This document shows, in pieces, positions 10,074 through 48,005 of a stretch of 64,000 bases of DNA (position 1 is its first letter; every line of letters begins with the position of its first letter). Origin of the DNA: Bacteroidota bacterium. Its GTDB lineage: Bacteria > Bacteroidota > Ignavibacteria > Kapaibacteriales > HRBIN21. The notes beneath the pieces were generated by a model. That model was given only the letters and a program-made list of their open reading frames with translations. It was not told the origin of the DNA and made no database searches. A program made the translations under genes and the position numbers. Location: positions 332,756 to 396,755 of the forward strand of contig JAUQPL010000001.1 of the NCBI GenBank assembly GCA_030550395.1, given 5' to 3'.

Positions 10074-12245
10074 ATGTACTGCAGCACGCCTCCAGAGACT
10101 CAGGAGAGCAAGATAGATGTACGTCCGCTCTTAGAACCCCGCTCCATTGCTGTCATCGGAGCTTCCCGACAGCCCCAGACCGTCGGCTGGCTTGTGTTTG
10201 ATAATCTCCTCTCCGGCGGCTACACCGGGGTCGTTTACCCTGTCAATCCCCACGCCCACGCTATCCGAGGAGTGCGAGCCTACCCTACCATTGAGGCCAT
10301 CCCGGATCCAATTGAGCTTGCAATCATCACCGTGCCAGCGCCTTCTGTTGCCGACGTCTTGGAATCCTGTGGTCACCAAGGGGTCCGCGCCGCTATCGTT
10401 ATCAGCGCCGGCTTTAAGGAAATCGGCCCTGAAGGGATAGCTCGAGAGGAACGCCTCCGCGCTATCGCCCGTCGCTATAGGATTGCCCTCCTGGGCCCCA
10501 ATTGCCTTGGGCTTATGAACACCGACCCGGCGATTCAACTAAATGCCACGTTTGGTCAAACAATGGCTCAGCGCGGGACAATTGGCTTCATCAGCCAAAG
10601 CGGGGCTCTTTGTGCCGCTGTCCTTGACTACACCCGGGCGCATAACATTGGACTCAGCAAGGTCATTAGCCTCGGAAACAAAGCAGGGGCAACAGAGGTA
10701 GACTTCCTCGACTACCTCTGGCGCGATCCGCATACAACGGTGATTCTGCTCTACATTGAGGAGCTATCCGATGGACGTGCTTTCCTGGAGTTAGCCCATC
10801 GGATTACCAGTGACACCGAAAATCCCAAACCTATCCTCGCTCTAAAAGCCGGACGCACTATCGCCGGTGCCCGTGCTGTAGCTTCCCATACGGGCTCCTT
10901 GGCGGGAAGTGACGAAGTTTACCAAGCTCTTTTCAAGCAAGCAGGGGTGCTGCGGGTGGAAACAGTGGAAGACCTCTTTGAATACGCTCTCGCCTTCGCT
11001 AATCAGCCCATCCCCAAAGGCTCACGAGTCGCCATCGTCACCAACGCTGGGGGTCCGGGTATCATGGCGGCGGATACTTGTATTCAATACGGGCTGGAGG
11101 TTCCGCCCGTTCCTCAGCCCGAGCGTTTCCGCCACCAATGTCACCTACCCACCCACGCTGGGGTTACCAACCCAATTGATCTCATCGCCGACGCCCGCTC
11201 CGAACGGTATGCCTGCGTGTTAGATGCTCTGCTGTACGATCCTACGTTCGACGCATTGCTCATCCTCTTCGTCCCCATTCCCACAGCGGACATTGAAACT
11301 ATTGCGCAAGTCATCATTGACGCTGCCCGCCGCCGACTCAAACCCATCGTGGCATGCTTCATGGGGGTTGTTGACGTTGGACCGGCAAAAGCTGCCCTAC
11401 GGGCCGCCGGTGTACCTTGTTACGACTTCCCCGAGGACGCTGCCCGCGCATTAGCAGCGATGGCATGGTACGCACGGTGGCGCGCTCGTCCCGTGACAGG
11501 ATACCGTACCTTTGATGTCCGGTGTACAGAGGCAACTCAGCTCCTGGAGAGTGCTCAACCGAATGCGAACGGCTTTATTCCTGAAGACATCGCCTTTCGG
11601 ATCTTGGAATGCTACGGCTTTGCCCTCCTCCCCTGGGCTGTCGCCCACTCGCCAGAGCAAGCAGCTGAGGTTGCGACTCAGTTGGGCTTCCCCGTCGCTC
11701 TCAAGGTGCTTTCGCCCGACATTATCCACAAATTTGACATCGGTGGCGTCGTGCTCCACGTGGATTCTCCTGAGAGCGCTCGCCGTGCGTTTGACCAAAT
11801 CCACAAGGCGATCCTCGAGCACTCCCCAGGAGCTCGCTTTGACGGCGTGCTCGTCCAGAAGATGGGGGAGCGCGGACACGAACTTATTCTAGGCGTCAAG
11901 CGGGACGAACAGTTCGGTCCCATCGTCATGGTCGGGCTGGGAGGCATTTACGTGGAAATCTTCCGTGACGTAGCCTTCCGCATCGCTCCTCTGCGCGAAC
12001 GGAGTGCCCACCTAATGCTGGAAGAAACTCGCGCTGCAGCTCTCCTCCGTGGTGCCCGTGGACAACCCCCTGCCGACATTGATACCGTAGCGGAATACCT
12101 TCTCCGCCTCTCCCAACTGTCGCTGGAGCAGCCTGAGATTGAAGAATTAGATATCAACCCCCTGTTGGTCTATCCACGGGGCAATGGAGCTGTCGTTGTG
12201 GACGTCCGTATCGCTGTCCGTCGAAACGACAAGACGCCCCTGTGA
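10074..12245 (+). CDS. ADP-forming acetate/acyl-CoA ligase (fused alpha-beta)
   Basis: PRSIAVIGAS, GPNCLG, SQSG, ASHTG phospho-His, TNAGG, C-terminal ATP-grasp (ELDINPL); no GNAT domain. Confidence 0.92.
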   Translation: MYCSTPPETQESKIDVRPLLEPRSIAVIGASRQPQTVGWLVFDNLLSGGYTGVVYPVNPHAHAIRGVRAYPTIEAIPDPIELAIITVPAPSVADVLESCGHQGVRAAIVISAGFKEIGPEGIAREERLRAIARRYRIALLGPNCLGLMNTDPAIQLNATFGQTMAQRGTIGFISQSGALCAAVLDYTRAHNIGLSKVISLGNKAGATEVDFLDYLWRDPHTTVILLYIEELSDGRAFLELAHRITSDTENPKPILALKAGRTIAGARAVASHTGSLAGSDEVYQALFKQAGVLRVETVEDLFEYALAFANQPIPKGSRVAIVTNAGGPGIMAADTCIQYGLEVPPVPQPERFRHQCHLPTHAGVTNPIDLIADARSERYACVLDALLYDPTFDALLILFVPIPTADIETIAQVIIDAARRRLKPIVACFMGVVDVGPAKAALRAAGVPCYDFPEDAARALAAMAWYARWRARPVTGYRTFDVRCTEATQLLESAQPNANGFIPEDIAFRILECYGFALLPWAVAHSPEQAAEVATQLGFPVALKVLSPDIIHKFDIGGVVLHVDSPESARRAFDQIHKAILEHSPGARFDGVLVQKMGERGHELILGVKRDEQFGPIVMVGLGGIYVEIFRDVAFRIAPLRERSAHLMLEETRAAALLRGARGQPPADIDTVAEYLLRLSQLSLEQPEIEELDINPLLVYPRGNGAVVVDVRIAVRRNDKTPL

Positions 12246-13594
12246 AAGCACGTACGGTATACATCTGCCAGAACTGCGGTGCAACCTCTGCCCGCTGGAT
12301 TGGACGTTGCCCTGTCTGTGGAGAGTGGGACACTTTCGTTGAAGAGCGGCGCGAAACGGGAGAGCACCGCTCTGAGCCTCAGACTAAGGCAGCATCCCCA
12401 ACTCTTCTTGCCGAGGTTGGTTCCCAGAAAACTGAACGCCTCCGCAGCGGAATTGGAGAGCTTGACCGTGTCACTGGAGGGGGCTTTGTTCCTGGCACGT
12501 TGACCCTCTTGGCCGGGGATCCTGGAGTCGGGAAATCAACTCTTCTACTCCAGGTCTGCGCTCAGTTAAAGGCAATCCAAGCACTCTACATCTCCGGCGA
12601 GGAATCGCTGGAACAGCTACGCTTGCGTGCCGAGCGTCTTGGGACATTGCCCCCCACATTGCTGGTACTGGCGGAAACAGAATTAGAAGCTGTTGAACAG
12701 GCTATCCTCGAAGCTCAGGCACAGTTCGTGGTCATTGATTCTATCCAAACCCTCCACAGTCCTGCCCTAGAATCGCCTCCTGGCTCAGTAACGCAAGTTC
12801 GCGAAGCTGCCCTCCGACTTCAACGGCTGGCAAAGCAAACGGGGTCCATTATTCTGGCTATTGGACACGTAACGAAAGAAGGACTTGTTGCGGGTCCGAA
12901 AGTTTTAGAGCACATCGTTGACACCGTGCTCCAGTTTGAAGGGGAAGTTCCTTACGCATACCGTGTCTTGCGCGCGGTCAAGAACCGTTTCGGTCCAACC
13001 CATGAGCTTGGCTTCTTTGAAATGACAGCCTCGGGATTGCGGGAACTGCCCAATCCTTCAGTGCTGTTTTTGAGTAATGACACAGAGATGGAGTCAGGGG
13101 TGGCTATTGCCACTGTCTTGGAGGGAACTCGTCCCTTAGTAGTGGAAGTACAAGCGTTGGTAACTCCAAGCGCATATGCTGTACCTCAACGCAGTATTAC
13201 CGGATACGACTACCGACGACTGCAGATGATCATGGCTGTTTTGGAGCGACGGTTGGGTATTGGACTACGACAGTATGATCTCTTTGCCAACATCGTCGGT
13301 GGACTACGCTTAGAAGATCCCGCCCTGGATGCGGCGTTGGCGTTAGCAATTGTTAGCTCCTACCGGGATATTCCCCTCCCTCCACAGACAGCCGTTTTCG
13401 GTGAATTAGGGCTCACTGGGGAACTGCGTCCTGTGCGCTTGCCTGAAATTCGCCTGCGGGAAGCTCATCGTATTGGCATTCGTCGCCTTCTCCTCCCGAA
13501 GGCGAACGCTGAAGCTCTGTCCTATGCTTCCCCTGAGCTGGAACTCATCCCTATTGAGCGACTTTCCTTAGCCCTGACCCTCTTGTTCCCTTGA
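12242..13594 (+). CDS. radA: DNA repair protein RadA/Sms
   Basis: C4 Zn finger, GDPGVGKST, KNRFG, Lon-like C-terminus. Confidence 0.98.
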   Translation: MKARTVYICQNCGATSARWIGRCPVCGEWDTFVEERRETGEHRSEPQTKAASPTLLAEVGSQKTERLRSGIGELDRVTGGGFVPGTLTLLAGDPGVGKSTLLLQVCAQLKAIQALYISGEESLEQLRLRAERLGTLPPTLLVLAETELEAVEQAILEAQAQFVVIDSIQTLHSPALESPPGSVTQVREAALRLQRLAKQTGSIILAIGHVTKEGLVAGPKVLEHIVDTVLQFEGEVPYAYRVLRAVKNRFGPTHELGFFEMTASGLRELPNPSVLFLSNDTEMESGVAIATVLEGTRPLVVEVQALVTPSAYAVPQRSITGYDYRRLQMIMAVLERRLGIGLRQYDLFANIVGGLRLEDPALDAALALAIVSSYRDIPLPPQTAVFGELGLTGELRPVRLPEIRLREAHRIGIRRLLLPKANAEALSYASPELELIPIERLSLALTLLFP

Positions 13595-13622: not shown

Positions 13623-14267
13623 ATGCCTGTCCGTCCCTCCGAACTAAAAGCCCTCACGGAGTTGACCGACGAAGACCTGATGAGACTGTTCCAGCAAGAT
13701 AACTCCGAAGCCGCCTACACCGTCCTGGTTCGCCGTTACAGGTCTCCCATCACGAATTTCCTCTACCGATTCGTGGGCAACTACGACGATGCCTTGGACT
13801 TGGCCCAGGAAACTTTCCTGCGTCTGTACAAGTATAAGCACACGTATCACTCGGTCCAACGCTTCTCGACATGGCTCTATACGATTGCAACCAATGTTGC
13901 CCGCACGTTCTATCAGCAGCGGAACCGGTACTCGACGGCCTCCCTTACCTCTATGCAATCCAGCGAGGAGGAAGAGCCATCGGAATGGGAAATCCCCGAC
14001 ACCAGCTATATACCCGACCAGAGGGTGGACTCCACGTATATTGCTCAGCGCATCCAGAAGGCACTTATGCAATTGCCCCCCGTCTTCCGGGAAGCTATCG
14101 TGCTTCGGGAAATCCTGGAGTTGTCGTACGAGGAAATTGCCGAAGTCATGCAGACAGAGTTAGGCACGGTTAAATCTCGCATTAACCGGGCCCGGCAGCG
14201 CCTACAAGAACTTCTGCGGGATGTTTACGAAGAGTTATACGGAACCCCAACTTCCCAAGCAGAATAA
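13623..14267 (+). CDS. ECF sigma-70 factor (RpoE-like)
   Basis: DLAQETF, FSTWLYTIATN, LSYEEIAE....GTVKSRINRAR. Confidence 0.95.
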   Translation: MPVRPSELKALTELTDEDLMRLFQQDNSEAAYTVLVRRYRSPITNFLYRFVGNYDDALDLAQETFLRLYKYKHTYHSVQRFSTWLYTIATNVARTFYQQRNRYSTASLTSMQSSEEEEPSEWEIPDTSYIPDQRVDSTYIAQRIQKALMQLPPVFREAIVLREILELSYEEIAEVMQTELGTVKSRINRARQRLQELLRDVYEELYGTPTSQAE

Positions 14268-14270
14268 GCC

Positions 14271-14726
14271 ATGAACGAGCGTGAACACAAGAATCAACCC
14301 TTGCTCAAAGCATTCCTCTCTTCTGTTCCTGTACCGGAGGATTTTGAGCTACAACTTTGGATCCGCCGTGCTCTCCGTGAGCTCCCCTCTGTCCATATCC
14401 CCGATACCTTTGAAGAAGCTTTGTGGCAACGCATCCACGCCGAGCAACAGATAAACTCCTGGCGTCATGGGCTTGCAATCTCCGTCCTCCTCACTGCCCT
14501 CTGGGGTGGGATACTGGGCCTTTGGCCCGCCAGCCGTTCCTCCACATCTGTAACTCAGACCGCTCCTTTACGAGGGGTTGTTGTCACGGAACCTCTGCTC
14601 ATCCCAGCGGACCAACGCTTTATAGAAATATCCCCGCAACCACCACGCAAACCTTCCTTACAACCCCAGCGCTCCTTAATGCCCATACCTGGCGGCACAA
14701 ATCCTCTCCCACCGCCGGAGGAATAA
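14271..14726 (+). CDS. Single-TM protein, probable anti-sigma factor
   Basis: Directly follows the ECF sigma; short cytoplasmic N-terminus with repeated V..P..FE..L, one TM, Pro-rich tail. Confidence 0.6.
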   Translation: MNEREHKNQPLLKAFLSSVPVPEDFELQLWIRRALRELPSVHIPDTFEEALWQRIHAEQQINSWRHGLAISVLLTALWGGILGLWPASRSSTSVTQTAPLRGVVVTEPLLIPADQRFIEISPQPPRKPSLQPQRSLMPIPGGTNPLPPPEE

Positions 14727-14906
14727 GCTCCTCCCACCACCACAGAGGAGGTTCCTTAACCTTGCATCAGAGGAGCACGGGAAGGATATCCCTTTCTGCA
14801 TTTTCCCTCCTTTCGGAAAATGCAACCCCGCGCCAGGTACCCGGCGGGCGAATACTCGCCCGGGGTACCCATAGACGCGAGGCACACAGCTTCCACTGCT
14901 GTCTTC
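14727..14906. ncRNA. Candidate structured RNA in a convergent intergenic region
   Basis: Hairpins at 14728-14750, 14797-14824 (perfect 10 bp) and 14826-14882; G.U versus A.C asymmetry favours the minus strand. Confidence 0.45.
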
Positions 14907-15434
14907 TTAGCGCACCGGTTGGGGTGGTTCCATGACCGCTCCGCAATTCTTACAGGTGCGGAGCTCTACAGAGCCGTAGAAGCGCTCAAAGACGCGTGGA
15001 AGCTGTTCAACAATGTCACGGACATGGAGGAATTCTTCGTAAAGCTTATCCCCACACCGCTCACAGAACCACATGAAACCGTCCAATTCGTCAGGGCGCC
15101 GCTTGCGTTCAATGACCAGCCCAACAGTGTTCGCTGGGCGCTGCGGCGAGTGGGGCACCCGTGGTGGAAGGAGAAAGATTTCCCCTTGCCGGATCGGGAT
15201 ATCCTTGGGCTGCCCGTCCTCAATTACCTTAAGCACGATATCACCCTCCAACTGGTAGAAGAACTCCTCCCCCTCATCGTAGTGGTAGTCCTTCCGGGCG
15301 TTAGGACCACCCACAACCATAATGATGAAGTCCTGATTGTCTGTGTAGACAACCGCGTTGCCCACCGGCGGCTTGAGCAAGTGGCGATGTTCTTCTATCC
15401 ATTGCTGGAAGTTGATCGGCGGGAGCAGGGGCAT
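14907..15434 (-). CDS. nbaC: 3-hydroxyanthranilate 3,4-dioxygenase
   Basis: [32 protein letters not shown]-terminal CxxC pairs; ATG at 15434. Confidence 0.96.
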
Positions 15435-15543
15435 GGGGTCCTCACTTTCTGTCAAACTTTCCTCAACTGGCTCTTTTGGGGTACGCAATTTACGGAAATT
15501 CGGCACTTAGGCTATAACACCCAATTCATTGAGGCACACCAAG

Positions 15544-17523
15544 TTATGGCTTAGGACGTGGAGCCTTCTCTGGGGCCTCTTCCGAATCCCCTGGGGATGG
15601 TACTACATCAGGGAGAATTGAGGGCTGGGGAGCCGACTCCTGTAAAACCGGTTGCGCCGGCGGCTTGGCCGGCGAAGAAGGGGGTGTCGGTGGAGCGGGG
15701 TAACGCTGTAGAATCGCCTCCGGTGCAACTCCCTCACGGCGGGCACGGGCATGGGCAACGCTTAGCCGGATATCGGCAGCGTATTCCGACGTTGGGTATT
15801 GCTGGAGCAAAAGCTCATAATAAAACAAAGCGCTATCCACCTGCCGCAATGGAGGATGTTCGTACATCCACCCTAACGCATACAATGCCTTGGGAGCATA
15901 AGGAGATGCTGGGAAGCGCTCTACCAGGCGGTATAACTGTTGACGAGCAAGGGTATACTCCCCAATGCGCCACAGGCGCATGCCGGATTCATAGAGCTCA
16001 GCCGCCGTGTCAATCAAGGCTTCTGGCGTAAACCCTAACAACCGCTGTGCTTCCTGACCGTAGGGAGCCGCAGGACAGCAAGCCGCAAGCTCTTCCAAGA
16101 GAGAGTCTCTCAAAGCTGGCTCCGACACCGATAAAGCCAAAGCCAAGGTAGCCCGAGATCGGTATAGACCCGTATCCGGCGCCACCTGCAAAGCTCGACG
16201 ATAGAAAAGCTCTGCAGAATCCGCATTCCCGATATTCGTGTGAACACGCGCCAGTTCGTAGTAGGCCTGACTCAGACGCGCCCGAAGGCTGTCAGAGAGG
16301 CTACTTGGCTCGGTTCCCCGAGCGCTGGAAAGTGTCGCCATTGCTTGTTCCCAGCGGGCCAGCAGTTCGCTATAGCGGCGTGCCTTTTGGAAGACAGGCG
16401 AGCGTGTAACACTGGCGCGAGCAAACAAACGTTGTGCCTGCCGATACTGTCCATTGCGAAGGAGCTGCATCCCATATTCGTACTGCACCGCCAAGAGTGC
16501 AGGGTTTCCAGCAAAGGCGGAATCTGCTCGCCGTTCTATGCGAGCGAGGGTGTCTTCGGAAGTTCCCATGCGGCGACGGAACGCAAGTTCCTGAGCTAAC
16601 GTATAGCCCAGCCATTGCTCATACCGTCGGGATCGGGCAAGCTTTGTGAGGATTTCCTCTGCCTCGCGGAAACGTCCGCTCCGCGCAAGCGAAGCAGCTC
16701 GGTAAAGCTGGGCTTCATACTCCACAACTACCGTTGGATTGTATCGGAGGACTTCCGCAAAGGCAGTGGCTGCCTGCTCGAACTGTCCTATGCGATAGTA
16801 AAGTGCCCCAATCTCCCACTGCCACCGCGCCCGTTGCTCCCCGTCGGGGGCAATCAACACTGCCTGCCGATACGGGCGGAAAGCCGCTTCTAAATCACCC
16901 TGGCTGAGTGCGAACTCTGCTTGCAGTCGGAAGGCTTCGCTGAGAACATCGTATCGCTTGTAGTACCACCCGATATCAATCGCACGAGAAAGAGCCTGCT
17001 GTCCTAAAGTGTACTTGCGTTGCATCAGATACGCCTTCGCCAGCAGCAATTGGGCATCAGGAGCAAGATCACCGGTCGGAAAGAGCTGCAGCAGTTCCTG
17101 GCATTTGATCTGGGCTGGTAGCCACTCGCTCCGGTAGAAAAACGCCTGAGCCATCATCAGGAGAGCATCCTCCACGAACTCTGAGCGGGTGCGAAATGCC
17201 AAAATCTTAGAGCCCTTCTGCAGAATGGAATCCAAGCGCTTGTGGACAGGTTGTAGCTTTGCAGGCTCAATGACAAATTCCTGCAGAAAAGGGGGGATTT
17301 CCCCTGCCTGTGTGCCCGGGATGATGGAGGGATCAGGAACTAATACGCGTGGGCGTTGCACACGCCGTGTCTCATCGTAGTAGCTGAACTCCTCTTCCAC
17401 CTCGCTCATGAGGCGCCGCATGTTGTAGACGGTGTTGAAATACGCCTCGGCATTCCACCATAGCTGGCACCCCGCGCTCAACAGAGTACCTACGCTAAGG
17501 AAGAGCGCAGCTCTATGTCCCAT
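15544..17523 (-). CDS. TPR-repeat lipoprotein (SprE/PorW-like or BamD-like)
   Basis: Lipobox LSAGC, YFNTVYN N-terminal motif, many TPRs, FP.S.YAPKALY. Confidence 0.75.
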   Translation of the reverse strand: MGHRAALFLSVGTLLSAGCQLWWNAEAYFNTVYNMRRLMSEVEEEFSYYDETRRVQRPRVLVPDPSIIPGTQAGEIPPFLQEFVIEPAKLQPVHKRLDSILQKGSKILAFRTRSEFVEDALLMMAQAFFYRSEWLPAQIKCQELLQLFPTGDLAPDAQLLLAKAYLMQRKYTLGQQALSRAIDIGWYYKRYDVLSEAFRLQAEFALSQGDLEAAFRPYRQAVLIAPDGEQRARWQWEIGALYYRIGQFEQAATAFAEVLRYNPTVVVEYEAQLYRAASLARSGRFREAEEILTKLARSRRYEQWLGYTLAQELAFRRRMGTSEDTLARIERRADSAFAGNPALLAVQYEYGMQLLRNGQYRQAQRLFARASVTRSPVFQKARRYSELLARWEQAMATLSSARGTEPSSLSDSLRARLSQAYYELARVHTNIGNADSAELFYRRALQVAPDTGLYRSRATLALALSVSEPALRDSLLEELAACCPAAPYGQEAQRLLGFTPEALIDTAAELYESGMRLWRIGEYTLARQQLYRLVERFPASPYAPKALYALGWMYEHPPLRQVDSALFYYELLLQQYPTSEYAADIRLSVAHARARREGVAPEAILQRYPAPPTPPSSPAKPPAQPVLQESAPQPSILPDVVPSPGDSEEAPEKAPRPKP

Positions 17524-19388
17524 GGCGACCACAAGCTCACTAATACGCCATCGCCAGGTATACAGGGCAAAGGTTCACGCAACCACTGCTGGACAAAGCC
17601 CTGAGATTGCCCATCTTCTGAAGCCCGCGCACGGAGGCGGGCACGATAGTATGGACGGGGAGTCAGGCGGGTTGTGTATACCCGTCCCTCATTCACAGCA
17701 ACGATCTCCAATGCCCCCTCTACCATACCGACAAAGGCATTCCATTGAGCAATTGTGCGGACCCGTACCCCATTAACTGCCAAAATCTCGTCCCCGACCG
17801 CTAACCCAGCATGGGCAGCAGGAGAGAACTCCTCTACCGCCTCAACCCAGAGTCCCCCATTCTGCTCCCGGAGCGAGATTCCTGTAAAGCGAGTACCTGG
17901 AATTTGCCCAAGGACGGCATGCTCACCAATCAGACGCTCGGGAGCAATGCCCTTAACCCACTGTAATTCCAGCCCAATCAGAGGGAGAACGTCCTCATAC
18001 GGAAGTTCGCCGCGGTCGGTAAGCCACTCCCACAACAGCGGGCGGAGTTCCACACCTGTGGCTGCTTCCAGCTCTGAGAAAAGCTCTTCTTCCGTGAAAC
18101 CCCGGTCAGGCATCTGCTGCGCTCGGCGCCATAAAGCCTGCAGCCCGTCCTGAAGGCGCTTCTTCCCTCCCGTCTGCGCCAGGATCCACGCATCCAACAG
18201 CCAGGCAATGAGGGCTCCCTTGAGGTAATAGGACGGAAAGCGATTCAAACCGTCCGGACTCTGCCCGTACAGTTTCACCCAAGCTAAGAGGCTACTATCC
18301 CGCACAGAGAGAAAGAAGCGCCCAGGAACATGTGCCAATTTTTCCACCTCCGCCTCTAAATGGAGTAGCAGTTCCCGCTGCGTCAGATAGCCACACCAGT
18401 ACGGCAGGAGTATTTCGTAATAGCTGGTTACCCCTTCCACAAGCCAGAGCAACGGTGTGTACTGCTCCCGCTCGTAATCAAATGGACCCAATCCCTCCGG
18501 ACGGATGCGCTTTCCATTCCATGCATGGAAGAATTCATGGCAGAGAAGGCGCAGAAAGCGATGGGCACCTGCTAACTCCCGTAATGCCGAAGGATCCACG
18601 GCAATAACCTGGGAACGAGCGTGTTCCAATCCCCCAAAAGCTTCCGGCAGAAAGTGAAAGATAAAAACGTAGCGATCGTACGGCAATTCCCCTCCCCAAA
18701 ATGCCCCGACAACACGGACGACTCGCTCCGTACACCGAACAACCCACTCCTCGTCAACAGGCTCATTAGCCAAGATTGCGACCTCATGGAGGCGATTGCC
18801 TACAGAGAAAGCGTGAACGCTGTGCGAACCAACCTGGATTGGCGAGTCTGCTAAGACATCGTAAGTTACGGCCCCCAAACGAGGGGGAAATCCATGGTCA
18901 ACGGGTGAGAGCGAAGTTGTGATTCGCTGCCACTGGGCGGGCTCAAAGTCTACAACAACATGGTGAGGCTCATGCTGGCGTCCTTCCACGTAAGGAAGGC
19001 AATTAGAGGGCATAACGAAGGCATACCATCGGCTCACGTGCGTCGTCCGCACCGAACGTTCATTGCCGAAGTAGACGGCTTTCAGGTAGAGCTTCTCCGC
19101 CCCTTCGCAAAAGACACGGAAACGGTTCTTCGCCCGCCACTCCACATCCAGTGGACGCCCTCGCTCATCTAGAACCCCTTCCAAGGTGAAGTTCGTTGCA
19201 AAGTCCCGAATCTTATAGCTACCCGGCGTCCACGAGGGTAACACGAAGTCCAGGGACAAGGCCCCGCGGGTGGCGACTTCCATACGGATGTCTAGCAAAT
19301 GTCGCGCAGCCCGCTCAAAGGACAGCACATAGCAAATATCGGCGGGCAAACCGAAAACTTCTGCATCTCGCTGGTCAATCCGATACAT
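17490..19388 (-). CDS. M61 family (glycyl aminopeptidase-like) metallopeptidase with PDZ domain
   Basis: LPSWTPGSY, GGLEH, HEFFHAWN.KRIRP, LW..EG.TSYY, SYY.KG, C-terminal PDZ; ATG at 19388. Confidence 0.93.
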   Translation of the reverse strand: MYRIDQRDAEVFGLPADICYVLSFERAARHLLDIRMEVATRGALSLDFVLPSWTPGSYKIRDFATNFTLEGVLDERGRPLDVEWRAKNRFRVFCEGAEKLYLKAVYFGNERSVRTTHVSRWYAFVMPSNCLPYVEGRQHEPHHVVVDFEPAQWQRITTSLSPVDHGFPPRLGAVTYDVLADSPIQVGSHSVHAFSVGNRLHEVAILANEPVDEEWVVRCTERVVRVVGAFWGGELPYDRYVFIFHFLPEAFGGLEHARSQVIAVDPSALRELAGAHRFLRLLCHEFFHAWNGKRIRPEGLGPFDYEREQYTPLLWLVEGVTSYYEILLPYWCGYLTQRELLLHLEAEVEKLAHVPGRFFLSVRDSSLLAWVKLYGQSPDGLNRFPSYYLKGALIAWLLDAWILAQTGGKKRLQDGLQALWRRAQQMPDRGFTEEELFSELEAATGVELRPLLWEWLTDRGELPYEDVLPLIGLELQWVKGIAPERLIGEHAVLGQIPGTRFTGISLREQNGGLWVEAVEEFSPAAHAGLAVGDEILAVNGVRVRTIAQWNAFVGMVEGALEIVAVNEGRVYTTRLTPRPYYRARLRARASEDGQSQGFVQQWLREPLPCIPGDGVLVSLWSPWDIELRSSLA

Positions 19389-20175
19389 AAGGGTCTTCCG
19401 TCGAATGCACCGCCAATTGCTCCCGATAGTATCGCTGACGCTGGATTTCAAAAAGCACAACTGCAGTAGCTGCAGCAGCATTAAGCGAGGTAACCCGTCC
19501 CCTGAGAGGAATCCGCACAACGATATCGCAAAGGGAGCGAATCCCGGGGCGCATACCCCGATGTTCATTGCCAATAACAAGCACAATTGGGCGATCGTAG
19601 AGTTCCTCGCAATAGAGATGCTCTCCATCGGGAGCCGTACCGACAACCCACCAGCCCTGCTCCTGTAAAGTCCGGAGCGCAAAAGCAAGATTCGGCACGA
19701 CCGCCACAGGCAAGCTCGCAAGGGCACCTGCAGAAGCCTTCAGGGCTGCCGGTGTAATCGGCGCCGAGTGGTGTCGCGGAAGCACTATACCATGAGCTCC
19801 CGCAGCCTCGGCACACCGGGCAATTGCCCCGAGGTTTTGGGGGTCCTCAATACCATCCAACGCCACCAACAGGCCTATCGTTCCTGCAGGAGCCCCTGTG
19901 ACAAGCCGCTCCAACGTTGCAGGAGGAATCGGGGCCATCAAGGCAAGGACCCCTTGGGTTGAACGTATGTCTACCCCAAGAGCACGAACATGCTGAGCGA
20001 AACGCTGCCGATCCAATGCAACGCAGGGAACATGGGCACGGCGTGCCGCCTGTCGCACACTTTCTTCTACCCCACTTCCGTGCAGCACATACACCTTCTG
20101 TACGCGCCCTTCCCGGCGGAGAGCCTCTTCCACAGGGCGGCGGCCATAGATGTACATCCCTGCAGCCTCGGCCAT
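19375..20175 (-). CDS. rlmB: 23S rRNA (Gm2251) 2'-O-methyltransferase (SpoU family)
   Basis: LDGIEDPQNLGAIAR, KASAGA, IGNE..G, SLNAA. Confidence 0.92.
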   Translation of the reverse strand: MAEAAGMYIYGRRPVEEALRREGRVQKVYVLHGSGVEESVRQAARRAHVPCVALDRQRFAQHVRALGVDIRSTQGVLALMAPIPPATLERLVTGAPAGTIGLLVALDGIEDPQNLGAIARCAEAAGAHGIVLPRHHSAPITPAALKASAGALASLPVAVVPNLAFALRTLQEQGWWVVGTAPDGEHLYCEELYDRPIVLVIGNEHRGMRPGIRSLCDIVVRIPLRGRVTSLNAAAATAVVLFEIQRQRYYREQLAVHSTEDPYVSD

Positions 20176-20197
20176 AGAAGCACCAAGTTCACACTGG

Positions 20198-20593
20198 CTA
20201 TGCCGCCTCTTCTGCTGCCGCAGCACGCCGACGCTCGCGCTGCCGGCGACGCTCCTTCAGCCGGAAGTATCTCTGAGACACCCGTTCCTTGTGTTCAGCA
20301 ACCCGACGTTCAATTTCCTCGGCTGGAAGCCCCGCCTTCAGAAGGCGACGCCGTAATAGGATCCCCTCGTAGCTTAGGAGAAGGCGCACAATGTGGGTCG
20401 GACGCGCCCCAACTTCCAGCCAATAAAGCGCCCGGTCTGGTCTGATGACAATCGTGCTCGGAGACGTATTCGGATCATAGTAACCAATGCGCTCAATGAA
20501 GCGCCCATCACGCGGGGAACGGTTGTCTGCGGCAACAATATCGTAGAAGGCATAGTTGCGCCGCCCACGGCGACGCAGTCGTAGCTTCACCAT
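20198..20593 (-). CDS. rpsP: 30S ribosomal protein S16
   Basis: MVKLRLRRRG, SPRDGRFIERIGYYDP, W...GA.PT. Confidence 0.98.
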   Translation of the reverse strand: MVKLRLRRRGRRNYAFYDIVAADNRSPRDGRFIERIGYYDPNTSPSTIVIRPDRALYWLEVGARPTHIVRLLLSYEGILLRRRLLKAGLPAEEIERRVAEHKERVSQRYFRLKERRRQRERRRAAAAEEAA

Positions 20594-20604
20594 CCCAGAC
20601 TCAC

Positions 20605-21927
20605 TTAATTGTTCAACAGACCCTTCATGCTAAGACCAAGCGGCAGACGCCCCTGCTTCCACTGCCGCAGAATCTTTCGCATCTGCTCAAGGTGAGCAAC
20701 AAGACGATTGACCTCCTGGACCGTTGTACCACTTCCCCGGGCAATACGCCGACGGCGGGAGGCATTTAAAATGTGCGGATTCCTCCGCTCCTCCGGCGTC
20801 ATTGACAAGATGATTGCCTCCGCCCGAACGAGAGCTTTCGGGTCCAGCTGAACTACCTTGAGCCATTGTGGGGCCCCCGGCAACAGACGCACTATCTCCG
20901 AAAGAGAACCCATCGCCCGTATGGAACGCAGATACTCCAGGAGGGTCTCAAAGGTCACCTCATCGGATTGCTGTGACGGCTGTCTTACAAGCTCTACCTG
21001 TTGGAAGCGCTCCACCAAGGTTGCCACATCTCCCATCCCCAGGATGCGGCAGACAATCCGTTCGGGGTGGAATGGTTCTAGGGCTTCCGGGCGCTCTCCT
21101 GTACCAATGAATTTGATCGGCACCCCCGTTGCCGCCCGTAACGAAAGTGCTGCCCCCCCACGGGCATCCCCATCCAGCTTCGTCAGTATGATTCCAGTCA
21201 ACCCTATGGCTTGGTGGAAGCTCTCTGCGGTCGGCAAGGCATCCTGCCCTGCCATAGCATCACCGACGAGCAAGACCTCCTCCGGCTGAAATACCTCCCG
21301 CAGCTGCCGGAGCTCTTCCATCAGCTCTGCATCTACAGCAAAGCGACCTGCCGTGTCCGCAATGACGACATCGCGGGCCGAAAGCCGTGCATGCCGTACG
21401 GCTGCTTCCACGAGCGCTTTGGGATCTGGCACCCCTGCAAGGCGGAAGAAGGGCACCCCAATTGTTGCTGCTAAGTGCTCCAATTGCTCCTGCGCTGCTG
21501 GGCGGCGCATATCGCACGAGACCAGCAATGGATGGCGCCCACGCTGGCGTAAGTAAAGGGCAAGCTTGGCAGCTGTTGTCGTCTTCCCCGCGCCGTGGAG
21601 GCCTACAATGAGAATGCGCGTCGGAGGCTTGGATGCGCTACGAAGCGGCACCCATTGCTTGCCCAACAGCCCCACAAGCTCATCGTATATAAGCTTGAGC
21701 AAAAACTGCTCGGGCAATAGCATGGATGGTAGTGAAGCTCCAACTGCCCGCAAGCGGATACGCTGCACTAACTCGCGTACCAGACTGGTATGGACATCCG
21801 CCTCTAACAGGGTTCGCCGCAGTTCCTGAAGAGGTTCCTCTAATTCCTCGGGGCTTAGTGTCCGCACTCCCCGTAATCGGCGTATAACTGCCTGCAGCCG
21901 CTCAGTCAACTGTTCGAACATGAGCAT
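20605..21927 (-). CDS. ffh: Signal recognition particle protein Ffh
   Basis: GAGKTTT, DTAGR, TKLDGDARGGAALS, M domain SRRRRIARGSG. Confidence 0.98.
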   Translation of the reverse strand: MLMFEQLTERLQAVIRRLRGVRTLSPEELEEPLQELRRTLLEADVHTSLVRELVQRIRLRAVGASLPSMLLPEQFLLKLIYDELVGLLGKQWVPLRSASKPPTRILIVGLHGAGKTTTAAKLALYLRQRGRHPLLVSCDMRRPAAQEQLEHLAATIGVPFFRLAGVPDPKALVEAAVRHARLSARDVVIADTAGRFAVDAELMEELRQLREVFQPEEVLLVGDAMAGQDALPTAESFHQAIGLTGIILTKLDGDARGGAALSLRAATGVPIKFIGTGERPEALEPFHPERIVCRILGMGDVATLVERFQQVELVRQPSQQSDEVTFETLLEYLRSIRAMGSLSEIVRLLPGAPQWLKVVQLDPKALVRAEAIILSMTPEERRNPHILNASRRRRIARGSGTTVQEVNRLVAHLEQMRKILRQWKQGRLPLGLSMKGLLNN

Positions 21928-21949
21928 CCCCAGCTTTTCAGCAAGGTTA

Positions 21950-21957
21950 CAAAACTA
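21950..21957 (-). promoter_or_regulatory. -7 promoter element (TAGTTTTG) upstream of ffh
   Basis: Exact TAnnTTTG on the minus strand about 25 nt upstream of the start. Confidence 0.45.
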
Positions 21958-22007
21958 CGCCATCCTTCCAGGAAGGTACCCCCTCCAAATAAACCCCGAT
22001 GCTCCTC

Positions 22008-22038
22008 TTGACAGTTTTAGCCCAACTTCGTAATTTTG
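22008..22038 (+). promoter_or_regulatory. Strong housekeeping-type promoter
   Basis: TTGACA (22008-22013), 17-nt spacer, TAATTT; the same site is an exact TAnnTTTG (22031-22038). Confidence 0.65.
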
Positions 22039-22042
22039 CACT

Positions 22043-22130
22043 GCCTCCTAATGGCCTCCTTTGTGGTGGTGAAAGGTGGGAAGGGGAGTACCCCTCGGCA
22101 GCCAACTGCTGAGGGGTATCCTACTTTTAT
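22043..22130 (+). ncRNA. Candidate small RNA or attenuated leader
   Basis: Lies between a promoter and a terminator; two CCTCCT motifs; hairpin CCTTT-GTGGTGGTG-AAAGG. Confidence 0.5.
22089..22130 (+). terminator. Intrinsic terminator-like hairpin
   Basis: 13-bp stem TACCCCTCGGCAG/CTGCTGAGGGGTA (one G.U), CCAA loop, followed by TCCTACTTTTAT. Confidence 0.6.
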
Positions 22131-22207
22131 AAGGCCGGGTCCCGCACTGGTATTTGCAGCTGTGCGTCAACAGTCGCAGGGTGGTAAGTCGATGTAGGGT
22201 AGTCCTC

Positions 22208-23488
22208 ATGAAGCGCATCATAGGGGTGCTTTGCACTATCTCCTGGGGACTGGCTCAGATTCCAGGCAACCCTCAGCAGCAGCCGGTCGCCTTGGTGAAT
22301 GCAACATTGCACACTGTAACACAGGGCACCATTGAGAACGGAACGCTCGTATTTGACAATGGGCGCATCGTCGCTGTCGGCACCAAGGTAGAGATTCCCT
22401 CCAACGCTCGACGTATTGATTGCACAGGCAAACAGGTATATCCGGGCTTCATCACGGCATACTCCCAGTTGGGTCTTGTTGAGATTGATGCTGCCCGCGC
22501 CACGCGGGACGTTGCCGAGGTTGGGGACTTCAATTCCAACGTGATTGCCGCAACAGCGTATAATGTTGAAAGCGAGATCCTCCCCACGGTTCGAGCCAAC
22601 GGAGTCCTTATTGCCCACATAGTCCCATTGGGCGGACTTGTGACGGGGCGCAGTTCTATCGTTTCCTTGGATGGATGGAATGCTCCCGAAGCCACGCTCC
22701 GCCGAGTAGCCGGTCTCGTGGTCTCCTTCCCTTCACTCAGTCTCCGGCAAGCGTGGTGGGATCGCCGTCCGGCAGAGGAGCGCCAAAAAGAACAGCAGAA
22801 GCAGCTCCAGAAGTTGTACGACTTCTTCGAGCAAGCTCGCCAATATGCACGGGCTGCTGCAGCAGGAATGCTCCGTGAGCGTGATCTCCGGCTGGAAGCT
22901 ATACGCGCGGCGTTCACAGACTCTTTACCAGTCTTCATACTGGCCGACGAATACCCACAGCTACTGGAGGCACTCCGCTTTGCTCGGCATTTCGGACTCC
23001 GCCCCGTCCTTGTCGGGGCAGCCGATGCTTGGCGCTGCCTGGAAGAAATTCGCTCTGCCGGTGCTTCCATTATCCTCCGCCGGGTCCACCGCCTACCCCA
23101 ACGGGATGAAGAGCCATTGGATATTGCCTACCGCCTTCCCGCTCTTCTGGAACAGGCGGGCATCCGTTTCGCTATTGCCGAGGATCACACGTGGCCTCAG
23201 CGTAATCTGCCCTTCAACGTTGGCACAGCTATCGCCTTCGGACTCTCACGAGAAGCAGCTCTGCGTTCCGTCACCCTGTGGGCCGCCCAAATACTGGGCG
23301 TTGACGACCGCCTGGGCTCACTGGAGATCGGCAAAGATGCCACTCTCATCGTTTGCTCCGGTGATCCCTTTGACGTTCGCACCAATCGGGTCGAATATGC
23401 TTTCATCCAAGGACGGGCTGTAGACCTCCAAAGTCGTCATACGCGCTTGGCTGAGAAATACCGCCAACGCTACCGTCCCCAGCGATGA
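22208..23488 (+). CDS. Secreted amidohydrolase-family protein (imidazolonepropionase-like fold, metal ligands degenerate)
   Basis: Signal peptide; VYPGFI; GVDDRLGSLEIGKDATL; HxH position reads AYSQ. Confidence 0.85.
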   Translation: MKRIIGVLCTISWGLAQIPGNPQQQPVALVNATLHTVTQGTIENGTLVFDNGRIVAVGTKVEIPSNARRIDCTGKQVYPGFITAYSQLGLVEIDAARATRDVAEVGDFNSNVIAATAYNVESEILPTVRANGVLIAHIVPLGGLVTGRSSIVSLDGWNAPEATLRRVAGLVVSFPSLSLRQAWWDRRPAEERQKEQQKQLQKLYDFFEQARQYARAAAAGMLRERDLRLEAIRAAFTDSLPVFILADEYPQLLEALRFARHFGLRPVLVGAADAWRCLEEIRSAGASIILRRVHRLPQRDEEPLDIAYRLPALLEQAGIRFAIAEDHTWPQRNLPFNVGTAIAFGLSREAALRSVTLWAAQILGVDDRLGSLEIGKDATLIVCSGDPFDVRTNRVEYAFIQGRAVDLQSRHTRLAEKYRQRYRPQR

Positions 23489-24378
23489 TAGAAGGACAGC
23501 TACTGGAGCACTTCCCTGTTGCCATTCCCGCCCAGACTCGCTCCCTCTTCCGGCGCCGCCTATCAGCGGAGGAGTTCTCCCGATTCTGCCGTGTACGCCT
23601 CTTCAGCATTACGTACTGGAGCCAGGGGTTGCGAATCCGGGGCTATCTTGCGCTGCCGGCCGACCTTTCCGAACCAGCACCGGCTATCATCTTTAACCAT
23701 GGTGGGAGCGGAGAACGGTCTGCTTTAACCCCGCACACGGCTGCAGCTACCATCGGGTTATTCGCCGCATGGGGCTATGTTGCCATCGCCAGCCAATACC
23801 GCGGCATCGGGGGTAGCGAAGGGCAGGAAGAATGGGGAGGTGCCGACGTAGATGATGCCTTAGCCCTATTGCCCCTTTTGGAACGGCTCCCCGAGGTTGA
23901 CCCCGACCGCATCGGGCTTGTTGGTGGCAGCCGTGGCGGGATGATGGCCCTGCAGATGCTACGGCGCACCACCCGTTTCCGAGCAGCCGTTACCATTGGA
24001 GCTCCTACTATGCTCCATGCTCTACCCCTGACTGATCCTCTCTACCGTACGATGCTCCGCTTTCTCCCGCCAGGGGTTTCCCCCTCCACTGCCGCCGCTG
24101 AACGCTCCGCACTTCTGTGGGCTGAGGAACTTTGCAAGACTACTCCACTTCTGGTTCTCCACGGCACGGGAGATCGACGGGTTTCGCCCGAACACGCTCT
24201 CTACTTTGCGCTCGCTCTCCAGAGAGTACGTCACCCCTACAAGCTTATCCTCTACGACCATGCAGACCACGTCTTAGCAGGGCGCTGGGCAGAAAGCACC
24301 GCCGATATCCGCTGGTGGCTGGATCACTATGTCCGCCACCGTGCCCCGCTGCCCAAGGTCGGACCCCACGGCGCCTGA
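23485..24378 (+). CDS. S9/prolyl oligopeptidase-family alpha/beta hydrolase
   Basis: FNHGG, ASQYRG, GGSRGG nucleophile elbow, HGTGD.RV, DH. Confidence 0.88.
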   Translation: MIEGQLLEHFPVAIPAQTRSLFRRRLSAEEFSRFCRVRLFSITYWSQGLRIRGYLALPADLSEPAPAIIFNHGGSGERSALTPHTAAATIGLFAAWGYVAIASQYRGIGGSEGQEEWGGADVDDALALLPLLERLPEVDPDRIGLVGGSRGGMMALQMLRRTTRFRAAVTIGAPTMLHALPLTDPLYRTMLRFLPPGVSPSTAAAERSALLWAEELCKTTPLLVLHGTGDRRVSPEHALYFALALQRVRHPYKLILYDHADHVLAGRWAESTADIRWWLDHYVRHRAPLPKVGPHGA

Positions 24379-43627: not shown

Positions 43628-43659
43628 CTGTCCCCGATTCCCTTCGTCCACCTCTCCAG

Positions 43660-43735
43660 TCGGGGCGGTGGGATTTGAACCCACGACCTCCTGGTCCCAA
43701 ACCAGGCGCGCTATGCCAGGCTGCGCTACGCCCCG
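43660..43735 (-). tRNA. tRNA-Pro (TGG)
   Basis: CGGGGCG acceptor stem, anticodon arm CCTGG-TTTGGGA-CCAGG, T arm GTGGG-TTCAAAT-CCCAC; CCA not encoded. Confidence 0.97.
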
Positions 43736-46893: not shown

Positions 46894-48005
46894 ACCTTCT
46901 CTACCGCCTTCTGCGGTGGGGACACCGTTTTCCTTCTTTCCTCCTTCCATCCCCGTTCGCAGTAGCCCTCCACAGCTGGGGACGGCGTGTACTCTGGAGC
47001 TGGATCACCCATTGCCATATCCCCGTCCTCCCCTTCACTCCCCCCCCCTCAGGAGAGCGCCACTGCTGGGGACTCCGATTCCGCTCCCCACTTTTCAACG
47101 CCGCCGGCGTATTCAAGTACGGCGAGGGCTACGAACTATCCTACTGGCATGGTTCCGGGGCATATTTACTGGGGACAATTACCGCCCTACCTCGCCGTGG
47201 AATTAAACGCTGGGGAATCCGTCAACCTTTTCTCAGCCTCCCTCGCTCTTGTGCCGCTCTCAACACTTTGGGACTCCCCAACCCGGGACACCATGCCGCC
47301 GCGCGCATCGTAGAACGCCTTCCCCGATACCCGGGCTTCCCCATTGGTGTAAGCGTCGCCTTAGACCCCGAACTGAAACTCTCAGAAGCCCTCCAGCGCC
47401 TGCTGGAAGGACTCCGTCTGTATAGCGCCGCTGGCGTCGATTTCATCGAGCTCAACGAGAGCTGCCCCAATATCCCCCATGACCCGTCATGGCGGGCACT
47501 GGAATTCCGTCTGCGCTGGATAGCTGAACACTTCCTCTCCCGCCGAGAACGCTCGCTTCCTGTGGTGGTGAAGATCTCCACAGACACACCGGTGGAAGTA
47601 TTACCAGCGTTACTGGAACTTCTGCTGCAACTTGGCTACGATGGTATCACCATTGGCAATACGTCCACAGCCTATGAGGCACTATTGCCTACCATTGCTC
47701 CCTCGGAACGGCATCTCTATACATGGTTTTGGCATCGCTTCGGTGGCGGGATCAGCGGAGCCCCACTTGCTCATCGCCGCCGACAGCTTATCAGCTTGAG
47801 CGCTCAGTGGATTGCCCGCCACGCAACAGCACGTGAATTCCACCTCCTGGCCGTCGGCGGCATTATGAATCCTACGGACCTCCGCGAAGTTCTCTCCGCT
47901 GGAGCAAGCCTTGCCCAATGGTATACTGGTTATCTCCACGCCCTCGCCACCCACGGTGACGCCGTCTACCGATGGATGTCCTCCTCCTGTTGCGCTCACC
48001 CATGA
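46890..48005 (+). CDS. pyrD: Dihydroorotate dehydrogenase (divergent, quinone-type-like)
   Basis: NAAG..K, GT.T..PR.G, ELNESCPN, VKIS.D, NTS, GGISG, VGGI, A.L.Q.YT. Confidence 0.8.
   Translation: MNLLYRLLRWGHRFPSFLLPSPFAVALHSWGRRVLWSWITHCHIPVLPFTPPPSGERHCWGLRFRSPLFNAAGVFKYGEGYELSYWHGSGAYLLGTITALPRRGIKRWGIRQPFLSLPRSCAALNTLGLPNPGHHAAARIVERLPRYPGFPIGVSVALDPELKLSEALQRLLEGLRLYSAAGVDFIELNESCPNIPHDPSWRALEFRLRWIAEHFLSRRERSLPVVVKISTDTPVEVLPALLELLLQLGYDGITIGNTSTAYEALLPTIAPSERHLYTWFWHRFGGGISGAPLAHRRRQLISLSAQWIARHATAREFHLLAVGGIMNPTDLREVLSAGASLAQWYTGYLHALATHGDAVYRWMSSSCCAHP

Follow-up and report, generated by a model that had tools for sequence, protein, structure and literature searches.

The 64-kb stretch of Bacteroidota DNA analyzed here (contig JAUQPL010000001.1; the window) carries a conserved leader RNA of ~85 nucleotides (nt) at positions 22043 to 22128 of the plus strand. 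The element directly precedes a gene for an amidohydrolase-family protein, with which it shares the strand, and the 5' end of the element is predicted from a -7 promoter box. A sequence-only reading of the window had singled out part of this region (site 2) as a hairpin that shares its 9-nt loop with a second intergenic hairpin (site 1), located just after the stop codon of a putative anti-sigma factor gene. Its view that 22043 to 22130 holds an RNA element worth a second look is borne out by an alignment, a covariance model, and a covarying hairpin, which together point to a conserved, unannotated RNA. We propose that the two sites are unrelated and resemble each other by chance, through low-complexity CCTCC/GGTGG sequence, that site 1 is a young hairpin, and that site 2 is a new leader of an amidohydrolase/hydrolase operon that acts by attenuation. 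We give this reading a probability of roughly 60%.

Conservation and genomic linkage of the leader RNA

Relatives of the window were collected by one scan of genome contigs anchored on the amidohydrolase, with 10-kb flanks chosen to cover both sites. The scan matched 288 stretches, 165 of which were relatives, and 80 loci were retained for analysis. The nearest records are metagenome bins labeled Bacterium HR21, Chlorobiota, Candidatus Kapabacteria, Ignavibacteria, and Bacteroidota. Loci L001 to L011 encode amidohydrolases that are 49 to 77% identical to that of the window, and the remaining 69 loci, mostly from Bacteroidia, encode proteins with 35 to 44% identity. As evidenced by tblastn, the gene order from RadA to the hydrolase is kept whole in four relatives (L001, L002, L003, and L005; loci of 21 kb each), with the sole qualification that L005 has no detectable 3-hydroxyanthranilate dioxygenase (3-HAO) within its otherwise kept order. 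L004 and L006 to L011 keep the amidohydrolase only, with or without the hydrolase. The contig of L006 starts inside the amidohydrolase gene, and L006 was therefore left out of the element counts, as its upstream region could not be judged. Alignment A1 comprises the five syntenic genomes, that is, the window and its four syntenic relatives. Alignment A2 of the element and covariance model R1 comprise 11 sequences, from the window and 10 relatives with at least 49% protein identity, which fall into ~4 sequence types. The search with R1 covered the window and all 80 loci (1.47 Mb, E ≤ 10).

In A1, the segment from the -7 box through the T-run is near-invariant, and both of its flanks are unalignable. 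The element is 93 to 98% identical to that of the window in the four syntenic relatives (93 to 95% in L001, L002, and L003), while four-fold-type sites of the adjacent amidohydrolase gene in these genomes are 30 to 39% identical and thus saturated. An RNA that stays so similar beside saturated synonymous sites must do something important. The core of the element also lies directly upstream of the amidohydrolase ortholog in L004 and L007 to L011 (blastn-short), and blastn-short and the covariance model together place the element in the window and in 10 of 10 relatives at or above 49% protein identity for which upstream DNA is available. R1 returned 11 elements at 74.9 to 123.9 bits, along with 10 antisense partial matches on the same hairpins and 2 matches of ~11 bits. 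It found the element in none of the 69 distant loci and never more than once per locus in the 1.47 Mb searched.

The element is always on the same strand as the amidohydrolase gene, 42 to 89 nt before its start codon (42 nt in L003). The neighbor on the other side varies: it is ffh in four genomes, a divergent tRNA-Pro(TGG) gene in five, and other open reading frames (ORFs) in L003 and L004. Both ffh and the remaining gene order of the window are absent from L004 and L007 to L011. By this comparison of gene neighborhoods, the element is linked to the amidohydrolase rather than to ffh. Adjacency to ffh had made signal recognition particle (SRP) RNA a candidate identity, which was rejected: there is no Rfam SRP match at E ≤ 10, and in L003, L004, and L007 to L011 the element is no longer next to ffh.

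The tRNA-Pro(TGG) genes lie on the minus strand, ~150 to 200 nt upstream of the leader, at positions 20 to 95 of L007, 1768 to 1843 of L008, 186 to 261 of L009, 9613 to 9688 of L010, and 9614 to 9689 of L011. In the window, the tRNA-Pro gene is at 43659 to 43735, 21 kb from the element. A functional tie between the leader and tRNA-Pro(TGG) was considered and discarded, as tRNA sequence comparison and duplex folds gave no consistent or covarying complementarity.

Searches of known RNAs did not place the element in a family. When the whole window was compared with Rfam 15 (4227 families), only a tRNA reached threshold. At E ≤ 10, the best matches over the site 2 region were His_leader, with 19.2 bits against a gathering threshold of 49, and MIR2629 (15.9/60), neither of which amounts to family membership. 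L007 to L009, searched whole, gave nothing over the element except a subthreshold mir-204 match (21.5/48.4). A full-text literature search on RNAs of Ignavibacteria and Kapabacteria, and on the 9-mer as an RNA, turned up no description of such an element. Judged from these sequence searches, the element is a previously undescribed RNA family, found in Kapabacteria/Ignavibacteria-like Bacteroidota.

Promoter and coding potential

The predicted promoter lies at 22008 to 22038 on the plus strand and consists of TTG(ACA) at 22008 to 22013, a 17-nt spacer, and the -7 box TAATTTTG at 22031 to 22038, in a Bacteroidetes-type arrangement (TTG ... TAnnTTTG). The consensus for the Bacteroidetes primary sigma factor, as excerpted from two reports, has TTTG at -33 and TAnnTTTG at -7, with a G at -5 (PMC7366714, PMC6847099). 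Given that consensus and its G at -5, the 5' end of the leader in the window is predicted near 22043. All sequences but L004, which has a variant, carry TTG-N17-21-TAnnTTT(G/C) ahead of the element (10 of 11). The arrangement thus resembles that of the excerpted consensus in 10 of 11 cases, with the differences that the version in the window also resembles a classical TTGACA -35 box and that the promoter is a prediction in uncultured lineages. In 10 of 11 sequences, the gap from the hairpin to the start codon contains no second -7 box (TAnnTTTG). Because of the shared strand, the short gap, the predicted promoter of its own, and the lack of a second -7 box, the simplest reading of the element is as a 5' leader on the mRNA of the amidohydrolase.

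A small protein gene was considered as an explanation for the conservation and was rejected. Indels of 1 and 4 nt, between and within lineages, and a stop codon in L005 break the frame of every ORF of more than five codons. Indels of 1 nt occur even inside near-identical elements (-1 in L001, +1 in L003, and GAAAGG versus GAAAAGG), ATG-started ORFs that cross the invariant tract described below use different frames in different lineages, and the L005 stop codon in the ATG frame is created by a compensatory change in a stem. From this pattern of substitutions and indels, selection on the element is judged to act at the RNA level and not on coding.

The sole ORF common to all 11 sequences is a predicted four-codon frame, TTG-TGG-TGG-TGA at 22061 to 22072, which would read start-Trp-Trp-stop. 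Among the five closest genomes, the only change within the tract is an inserted A in L003 that turns the start from TTG into ATG and keeps Trp-Trp-stop. This reading of the frame is post hoc, because any TGG/GTG run reads as tryptophan in one of its three frames. The four-codon frame is nevertheless the only concrete proposal for a sensor that has evidence in the sequence.

Anatomy and alternative folds

The family has a common layout that runs, from 5' to 3', through a variable part, the invariant tract TTGTGGTGGTGAAA, a G-rich stretch ending in an invariant GGGGAGT, and a long hairpin. The variable part is CCTCC-rich in most sequences, and an unrelated small hairpin takes its place in L009 to L011. 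In the window, the invariant tract is TTGTGGTGGTGA at 22061 to 22072 on the plus strand; it is defined by invariant columns in A2 and contains the 9-mer GTGGTGGTG at 22063 to 22071.

The long 3' hairpin (22073 to 22127, plus strand) consists of a core stem (22089 to 22100 with 22107 to 22118) and an outer extension (22073 to 22081 with 22119 to 22127), between which lies an invariant 7-nt internal loop, AGGGGAG, at 22082 to 22088. Support for this hairpin is strong by several measures. Across the alignment, 97.8% of 227 cells are paired, as opposed to 42 to 54% when one side is slid; six pairs, with 21 cells, are changed on both sides; the covariation score was reached by 0 of 500 shuffles; and RNAalifold predicts the same structure. 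A terminator-like scan matched 22088 to 22119 in the window, with a 14-pair stem and the tail CCTACTTTTA. The hairpin of L004 is terminator-like as well, with a good T-run, and in L007 and L008 the tail is CTCACTATCTGG, which has no run. The predicted structure pairs part of the T-run with AAGGTGGGA further upstream. In the distant lineages (L004 and L007 to L011; e.g., L008 at ~2118 to 2126), the terminal loop of the long hairpin holds a second GTGGTGA, identical to the end of the invariant tract; in the clade of the window, the loop is GCCAAC instead.

A candidate alternative, anti-terminator-like hairpin would occupy 22076 to 22099 on the plus strand, where the G-rich 22076 to 22086 can pair with 22091 to 22099, the 5' strand of the core stem, around the loop AGTA. 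RNAalifold predicts it on sequences that were cut before the 3' strand of the long hairpin, and 97.2% of 71 cells are paired, compared with 46 to 66% when slid. The alignment is compatible with this modeled hairpin and does not prove it.

The hairpin at 22055 to 22079 on the plus strand, in which the arms CCTCCTTT and AAAGGTGG enclose GTGGTGGTG and which the sequence-only reading had put forward, fares less well and may at most serve as an alternative pairing (segment 0 with segment 1). None of its eight pairs has a compensatory change among the 11 sequences, 79.1% of cells are paired versus 76.5% and 79.8% with the 3' side slid by +1 and +2, and one pair never forms. That pair is the third of the stem, a T-T mismatch in all 11 homologs that the earlier description lacked. 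The 5' arm is replaced by other sequence in L009 to L011. A shifted register was tried and was no better than the slid controls. Folded alone, the hairpin has an energy of -5.7 kcal/mol (z, -1.3), and 21 of 200 shuffles are equally stable. The earlier claim that the hairpin covaries was made by comparing the two sites with each other, which were found not to be homologous.

Proposed attenuation and its possible sensors

The mechanism we infer is conditional transcription read-through, or attenuation, into the operon for the amidohydrolase and an alpha/beta-hydrolase. The G-rich segment (22072 to 22086) would pair with the 5' strand of the long hairpin to give the anti-terminator-like fold and read-through. 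Alternatively, the 3' tail or the CCTCCTTT arm further upstream would sequester it, and the full terminator-like hairpin would form. Three pairings thus contest the G-rich segment, as in classical attenuators. The choice of fold would be set by whatever occupies the invariant tract, be it a small ligand, a protein, or a ribosome on the start-Trp-Trp-stop frame.

One version of this mechanism, which we hold tentatively as a possibility, is a small riboswitch or protein-binding leader, in which a metabolite or protein recognizes the invariant tract and the AGGGGAG internal loop and stabilizes one of the folds. Invariant unpaired nucleotides beside a covarying helix are the usual signature of ligand or protein contact, and here they flank one; the G-rich segment has two mutually exclusive pairings; and the location in cis, upstream of enzymes, fits as well. 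On the other side, nothing resembling an Rfam riboswitch or leader was found at E ≤ 10 beyond chance-level matches, ~4 sequence types are too few to establish an aptamer fold, and the single gene context gives no clue to a ligand. Such a clue was sought in the function of the amidohydrolase by NCBIfam and Protein Data Bank (PDB) searches, and none was gained. NCBIfam matches are only subthreshold (hutI and Xaa-Pro dipeptidase), and the nearest solved structure, 3OOQ, described as an "amidohydrolase" (E of 1e-33), is a relative of unknown function.

The second version, which seems to us quite unlikely, is a ribosome-mediated attenuator on the four-codon frame, in which the rate at which the two tandem tryptophan codons are decoded, or the peptide released at the stop codon, would determine if the adjacent G-rich segment is available for the anti-terminator. 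This idea accounts for several features at once. The frame is the only one common to all 11 sequences and survives the 1-nt insertion that gives L003 an ATG start; tryptophan has a single codon, which would explain the absolute invariance of the nucleotides; the stop codon adjoins the segment with alternative pairings; and the weak top Rfam match, His_leader, is itself a leader-peptide attenuator. However, a tryptophan reading of any (GTG)n/(TGG)n run is available after the fact, the start codon is TTG with no visible Shine-Dalgarno or A-rich context, and the translation of the frame is putative. Moreover, invariance reaches past the ORF, to AAA and GGGGAGT, and Pfam, NCBIfam, and PDB searches show no evident link between the downstream genes and tryptophan. 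A four-codon ORF is also far shorter than any leader peptide that we know of.

A different reading of the same locus, which we consider unlikely, sees in the element above all an independent small RNA (sRNA) that acts in trans and ends at the hairpin. The invariant G/T-rich tract would be its seed for C-rich targets at other places in the genome, and its position before the amidohydrolase would reflect no more than inherited synteny. The element does have its own predicted promoter, with a terminator-like hairpin ~85 nt downstream. In addition, the invariant tract appears single-stranded (it is fully unpaired in the minimum free energy [MFE] fold of L010), and the sequence between hairpin and start codon is not conserved. 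Yet in 11 of 11 sequences the element sits right in front of the same gene and on its strand, although protein identity falls to ~50% and the neighbor on the far side has changed. Nor does the amidohydrolase have a separate -7 box in 10 of 11 sequences, and the gap from hairpin to ATG is only 42 nt in L003. Conserved targets could be sought only within the 21-kb loci.

The sequence between the leader hairpin and the start codon, in general not conserved, includes a second short conserved block, (G/C)TGCGTCAACA, at 22163 to 22176 in the window, after a small CGCAC...GTGCG inverted repeat. The block is present in three of the five syntenic genomes (the window, L002, and L005) and absent in L001 and L003.

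Two look-alike sites and their chance expectation

The letters on which the comparison of the two sites was built are as reported. The minus strand at 14750 to 14728 reads CTCCTCT-GTGGTGGTG-GGAGGAG, which extends to CCTCCTCTGTGGTGGTGGGAGGAGC when one flanking base is added on each side (14751 to 14727), and the plus strand at 22055 to 22079 reads CCTCCTTT-GTGGTGGTG-AAAGGTGG, with an identical 9-nt loop. The two named differences between the stems (C-G/T-A and T.G/T-A) are present. Read antiparallel, 22053 to 22071 pairs with 14735 to 14753 over 19 nt, by 16 Watson-Crick and 3 G.U pairs, and 14735 to 14753 does lie just after the stop codon of the anti-sigma gene.

The likeness of the two sites is only marginally above chance. 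GTGGTGGTG occurs three times in the window against 0.73 expected, a count reached in 3 of 100 shuffles, and the third copy, at 47562, lies within a coding ORF. The two sites are identical at 16 of 17 bases 5' of and through the loop. The corresponding 17-mer pattern, with up to three mismatches allowed, occurs twice against 0.24 expected, which is circular, since the pattern was derived from these two sites. Folded alone, both hairpins are weak; that of the site 1 minus strand has -9.8 kcal/mol, and 9 of 200 shuffles are equally stable. Neither strand of the 21-kb loci of L001, L002, and L005 holds another copy of GTGGTGGTG or CACCACCAC.

The sequence-only reading offered two explanations for the likeness, neither of which survived comparison with the relatives. 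The first, which makes the two sites paralogs of a single RNA hairpin that binds a protein and has GTGGTGGTG as its loop, starts from the identical loops, the 16 of 17 identical bases, and the excess of the pattern (itself taken from these sites); we find it hardly credible. R1 gave no match at 14727 to 14751 at E ≤ 10, with filters on or off. The site 1 copy is on the opposite strand in a convergent 3' region, where it would need minus-strand transcription beyond two strong hairpins downstream of the 3-HAO gene, and the minus-strand MFE fold does not form the proposed hairpin. It is missing from three of the four syntenic relatives (L001 to L003), and in the fourth, L005, the loop differs. 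Finally, the hairpin has no compensatory change or other covariation support within the site 2 family itself, and no locus in the 1.47 Mb holds more than one copy of the element.

The second explanation, which we regard as highly improbable, is that RNA from 22043 to 22130 acts in trans by pairing through CCTCCTTTGTGGTGGTG with the 3' untranslated region (UTR) of the mRNA for the extracytoplasmic function (ECF) sigma factor and anti-sigma factor (14735 to 14753), as its regulator, target, or sponge. The 19 contiguous pairs speak for it, as does the similar site 1 hairpin kept in L005. The leader's 5' 43 nt were also scanned against the window with RNAduplex (12,794 windows; mean, -20.9; standard deviation, 5.0; duplex energies alone), and the energy found for site 1 is given below with the points that count against our proposal. 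However, the complementary site is gone in L001, L002, and L003, where the leader is 93 to 95% identical and the ECF/anti-sigma operon is kept. In L005, the loop CACCACCCC introduces a central mismatch with no compensating change in the L005 leader. Unrelated places in the 21-kb loci of the four syntenic relatives score -41.7 to -46.3, and the anti-sigma 3' region is never among the top six duplex partners there. Furthermore, the 5' CCTCC arm that gives 8 of the 19 pairs is not conserved in L009 to L011. By these comparisons, the complementarity is not conserved, and in energy it seems unexceptional.

Site 1 itself has a simpler candidate history. On the plus strand, the hairpin region GCTCCTCC-CACCACCAC-AGAGGAGG (14727 to 14751; -8.1 kcal/mol) begins one base after the anti-sigma stop codon (TAA, 14724 to 14726). 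All five orthologous anti-sigma ORFs end in LPPPE(E/D) before the stop, and a similar hairpin follows only in L005, the closest relative by most proteins. In L001, L002, and L003, the hairpin is absent after the orthologous stop, where unrelated sequence and then ordinary terminators are found. Site 1 resembles the last ~20 nt of the ORF with its LPPPEE end, as evidenced by a local alignment score of 21 that was reached by 21 of 2000 shuffles, and in L005 the likeness is 20 of 24 matches. A tandem repeat was also considered, and Tandem Repeats Finder (TRF) reports none; the degenerate duplication is hinted at by local alignment only. Site 1 is probably a degenerate duplicate of this Pro/Glu-coding end of the anti-sigma ORF, which would explain its CCACC/GGAGG composition. 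The best Rfam match to the site 1 region, drz-agam-1 (19.2/37), is subthreshold. These comparisons suggest that site 1 is a young, lineage-specific 3' UTR hairpin of the ECF sigma/anti-sigma operon, unrelated to the site 2 RNA.

Several points weigh against the combined proposal of a chance match and an attenuating leader. A 17-mer shared by two intergenic stretches with at most one mismatch, in either orientation, was seen in just 4 of 40 dinucleotide-shuffled versions of a rough set of 22 intergenic stretches (~6 kb), and site 1 is the best non-self RNAduplex partner of the leader in the 64-kb window (-43.9 versus -40.2 kcal/mol for the next), so that chance is likely but not overwhelming. 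A recently evolved interaction between the leader and site 1 in the small clade of the window and L005 is conceivable. With regard to attenuation, most sequences have the T-run behind the hairpin shifted by ~5 nt, and L007 and L008 essentially lack it, so that some members may be regulated at a step other than termination. In the alternative hairpin, only one pair is compensatory, and 185 of 500 shuffles are as good. Independent events are few, because the 11 sequences represent ~4 types. Lastly, the 5' end of the leader, termination, and read-through are all predictions.

Gene neighborhoods of the two sites

Pfam matches and the ORF map place RadA at 12242 to 13594 (plus), followed by the ECF sigma factor at 13623 to 14267 (plus; Sigma70_r2/r4_2 in Pfam and the sigma70-ECF superfamily in NCBIfam). 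The next ORF, at 14271 to 14726 (plus), encodes a 151-amino-acid single-pass membrane protein that is taken as the anti-sigma factor from its position and one hydrophobic span; it has no family match in Pfam or NCBIfam. The putative anti-sigma proteins of the window, L001, L002, L003, and L005 are 43 to 51% identical overall, yet they share the C terminus LPPPEE (LPPPED in L002), encoded at 14703 to 14726 in the window. The 3-HAO gene follows at 14907 to 15506 (minus). Between it and ffh (20605 to 21927, minus) lie genes for a TPR protein, an M61 peptidase, a SpoU methylase, and ribosomal protein S16, all on the minus strand; these assignments, too, come from Pfam and the ORF map. The amidohydrolase gene spans 22208 to 23488 (plus; PF01979/PF07969), and its product has a short signal-peptide-like N terminus. 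It overlaps the gene for an alpha/beta-hydrolase of S9/DLH type at 23485 to 24378 (plus; PF00326). In this gene order, site 1 falls between the 3' ends of convergent genes, and site 2 between the divergent ffh and amidohydrolase genes. In L008 (2234 to 3339), the amidohydrolase frame from the start codon has only 95 codons and the tblastn match to residues 164 to 425 lies further on, which points to a frameshift or an assembly error in the bin.

The sequence-only reading also described TACCC/GGGTA-based hairpins beside both sites. GC-rich hairpins with GGTACC/GGGGTA ends do exist, at 14836 to 14870 and 22089 to 22118, but they are not a shared module. GGGGTAYC is not enriched (6 seen versus 3.15 expected, with at least 6 in 12 of 100 shuffles), and the first of these hairpins, GGTACCC...GGGGTACC at 14836 to 14870 on the minus strand, is a conserved 3' hairpin downstream of the 3-HAO gene. 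A homologous hairpin is found at that position in L001, L003, and L005, and a variant in L002. This conservation assigns the hairpin to the 3' region of the 3-HAO gene, with no relation to the site 2 stem.

Two structures in this region are conserved in L001, L003, and L005: a small hairpin right after the 3-HAO stop codon (ACAGCTTCCAC.GC.GTC; 14871 to 14906, minus) and, likewise, the GGGTACCC...GGGGTACCC hairpin at 14836 to 14870 (minus). No T-run follows the 3-HAO 3' hairpin on the minus strand, and the region may form a conserved structure of the 3' UTR instead of a simple terminator. In L005 (2950 to 3270; compare 14870 to 15100 of the window), the conserved 3' hairpin and approximately the last 130 nt of the 3-HAO gene are kept, with no 3-HAO found by tblastn at 1e-8, so that the gene looks truncated, a pseudogene remnant.

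Relation to known RNAs and implications

The leader has partial likenesses to three kinds of regulatory RNA. With leader-peptide attenuators of the trp/his type (His_leader, RF00514), it shares a promoter-proximal position, a putative very short frame with tandem codons for the same amino acid, and predicted overlapping alternative hairpins that end in a terminator-like stem before the genes that would be regulated. It differs in its subthreshold score (19.2/49 bits), in the putative four-codon frame with a TTG start, and in preceding hydrolase genes rather than a biosynthetic operon. With riboswitches and protein-dependent attenuators that use a terminator/anti-terminator platform, it shares the 5' leader position in cis, invariant unpaired nucleotides by a covarying helix, and a G-rich segment with two possible pairings, but it matches none of the 4227 Rfam families and its T-run is weak in several members. 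A trans-acting sRNA with an mRNA target or sponge would likewise be a small unit with its own predicted promoter and hairpin, and the window does contain the 19-nt complementarity to a 3' UTR; the difference is that this complementarity is not conserved where both loci are conserved and seems energetically unexceptional. In kind, then, the element would be a cis-acting leader with competing hairpins, attenuator or riboswitch-like, and in sequence and structure it appears to belong to no described family.

A bolder extension, for which the odds appear to be well below even, is that Kapabacteria/Ignavibacteria-like Bacteroidota, and only they, possess in this leader a new class of gene-control RNA. 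It would be a small riboswitch of a new type or a minimal attenuator sensed by the ribosome, with start-Trp-Trp-stop as its entire leader peptide; either way, it would switch the amidohydrolase/hydrolase operon by means of two competing pairings of a single invariant G-rich segment. On this view, site 1 could in addition be a recent recruit for pairing in the clade of the window.

To our knowledge, the regulatory RNAs of Bacteroidota outside gut Bacteroides and flavobacteria are almost unexplored, and it is chiefly through metagenome bins that these lineages are known. The negative part of this work carries a lesson of its own: a striking 19-nt complementarity of two intergenic hairpins is probably what low-complexity CCTCC/GGTGG sequence yields by chance in a GC-rich genome. 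At ~85 nt, the leader is small enough for quick in vitro dissection. Should the sensor be the four-codon Trp-Trp frame, ribosome-mediated attenuation would take an unusually minimal form here, and would do so in a phylum whose ribosomes start translation without Shine-Dalgarno pairing. If the leader instead binds a ligand, it would be an orphan riboswitch candidate and would also point to the substrate of the amidohydrolase.

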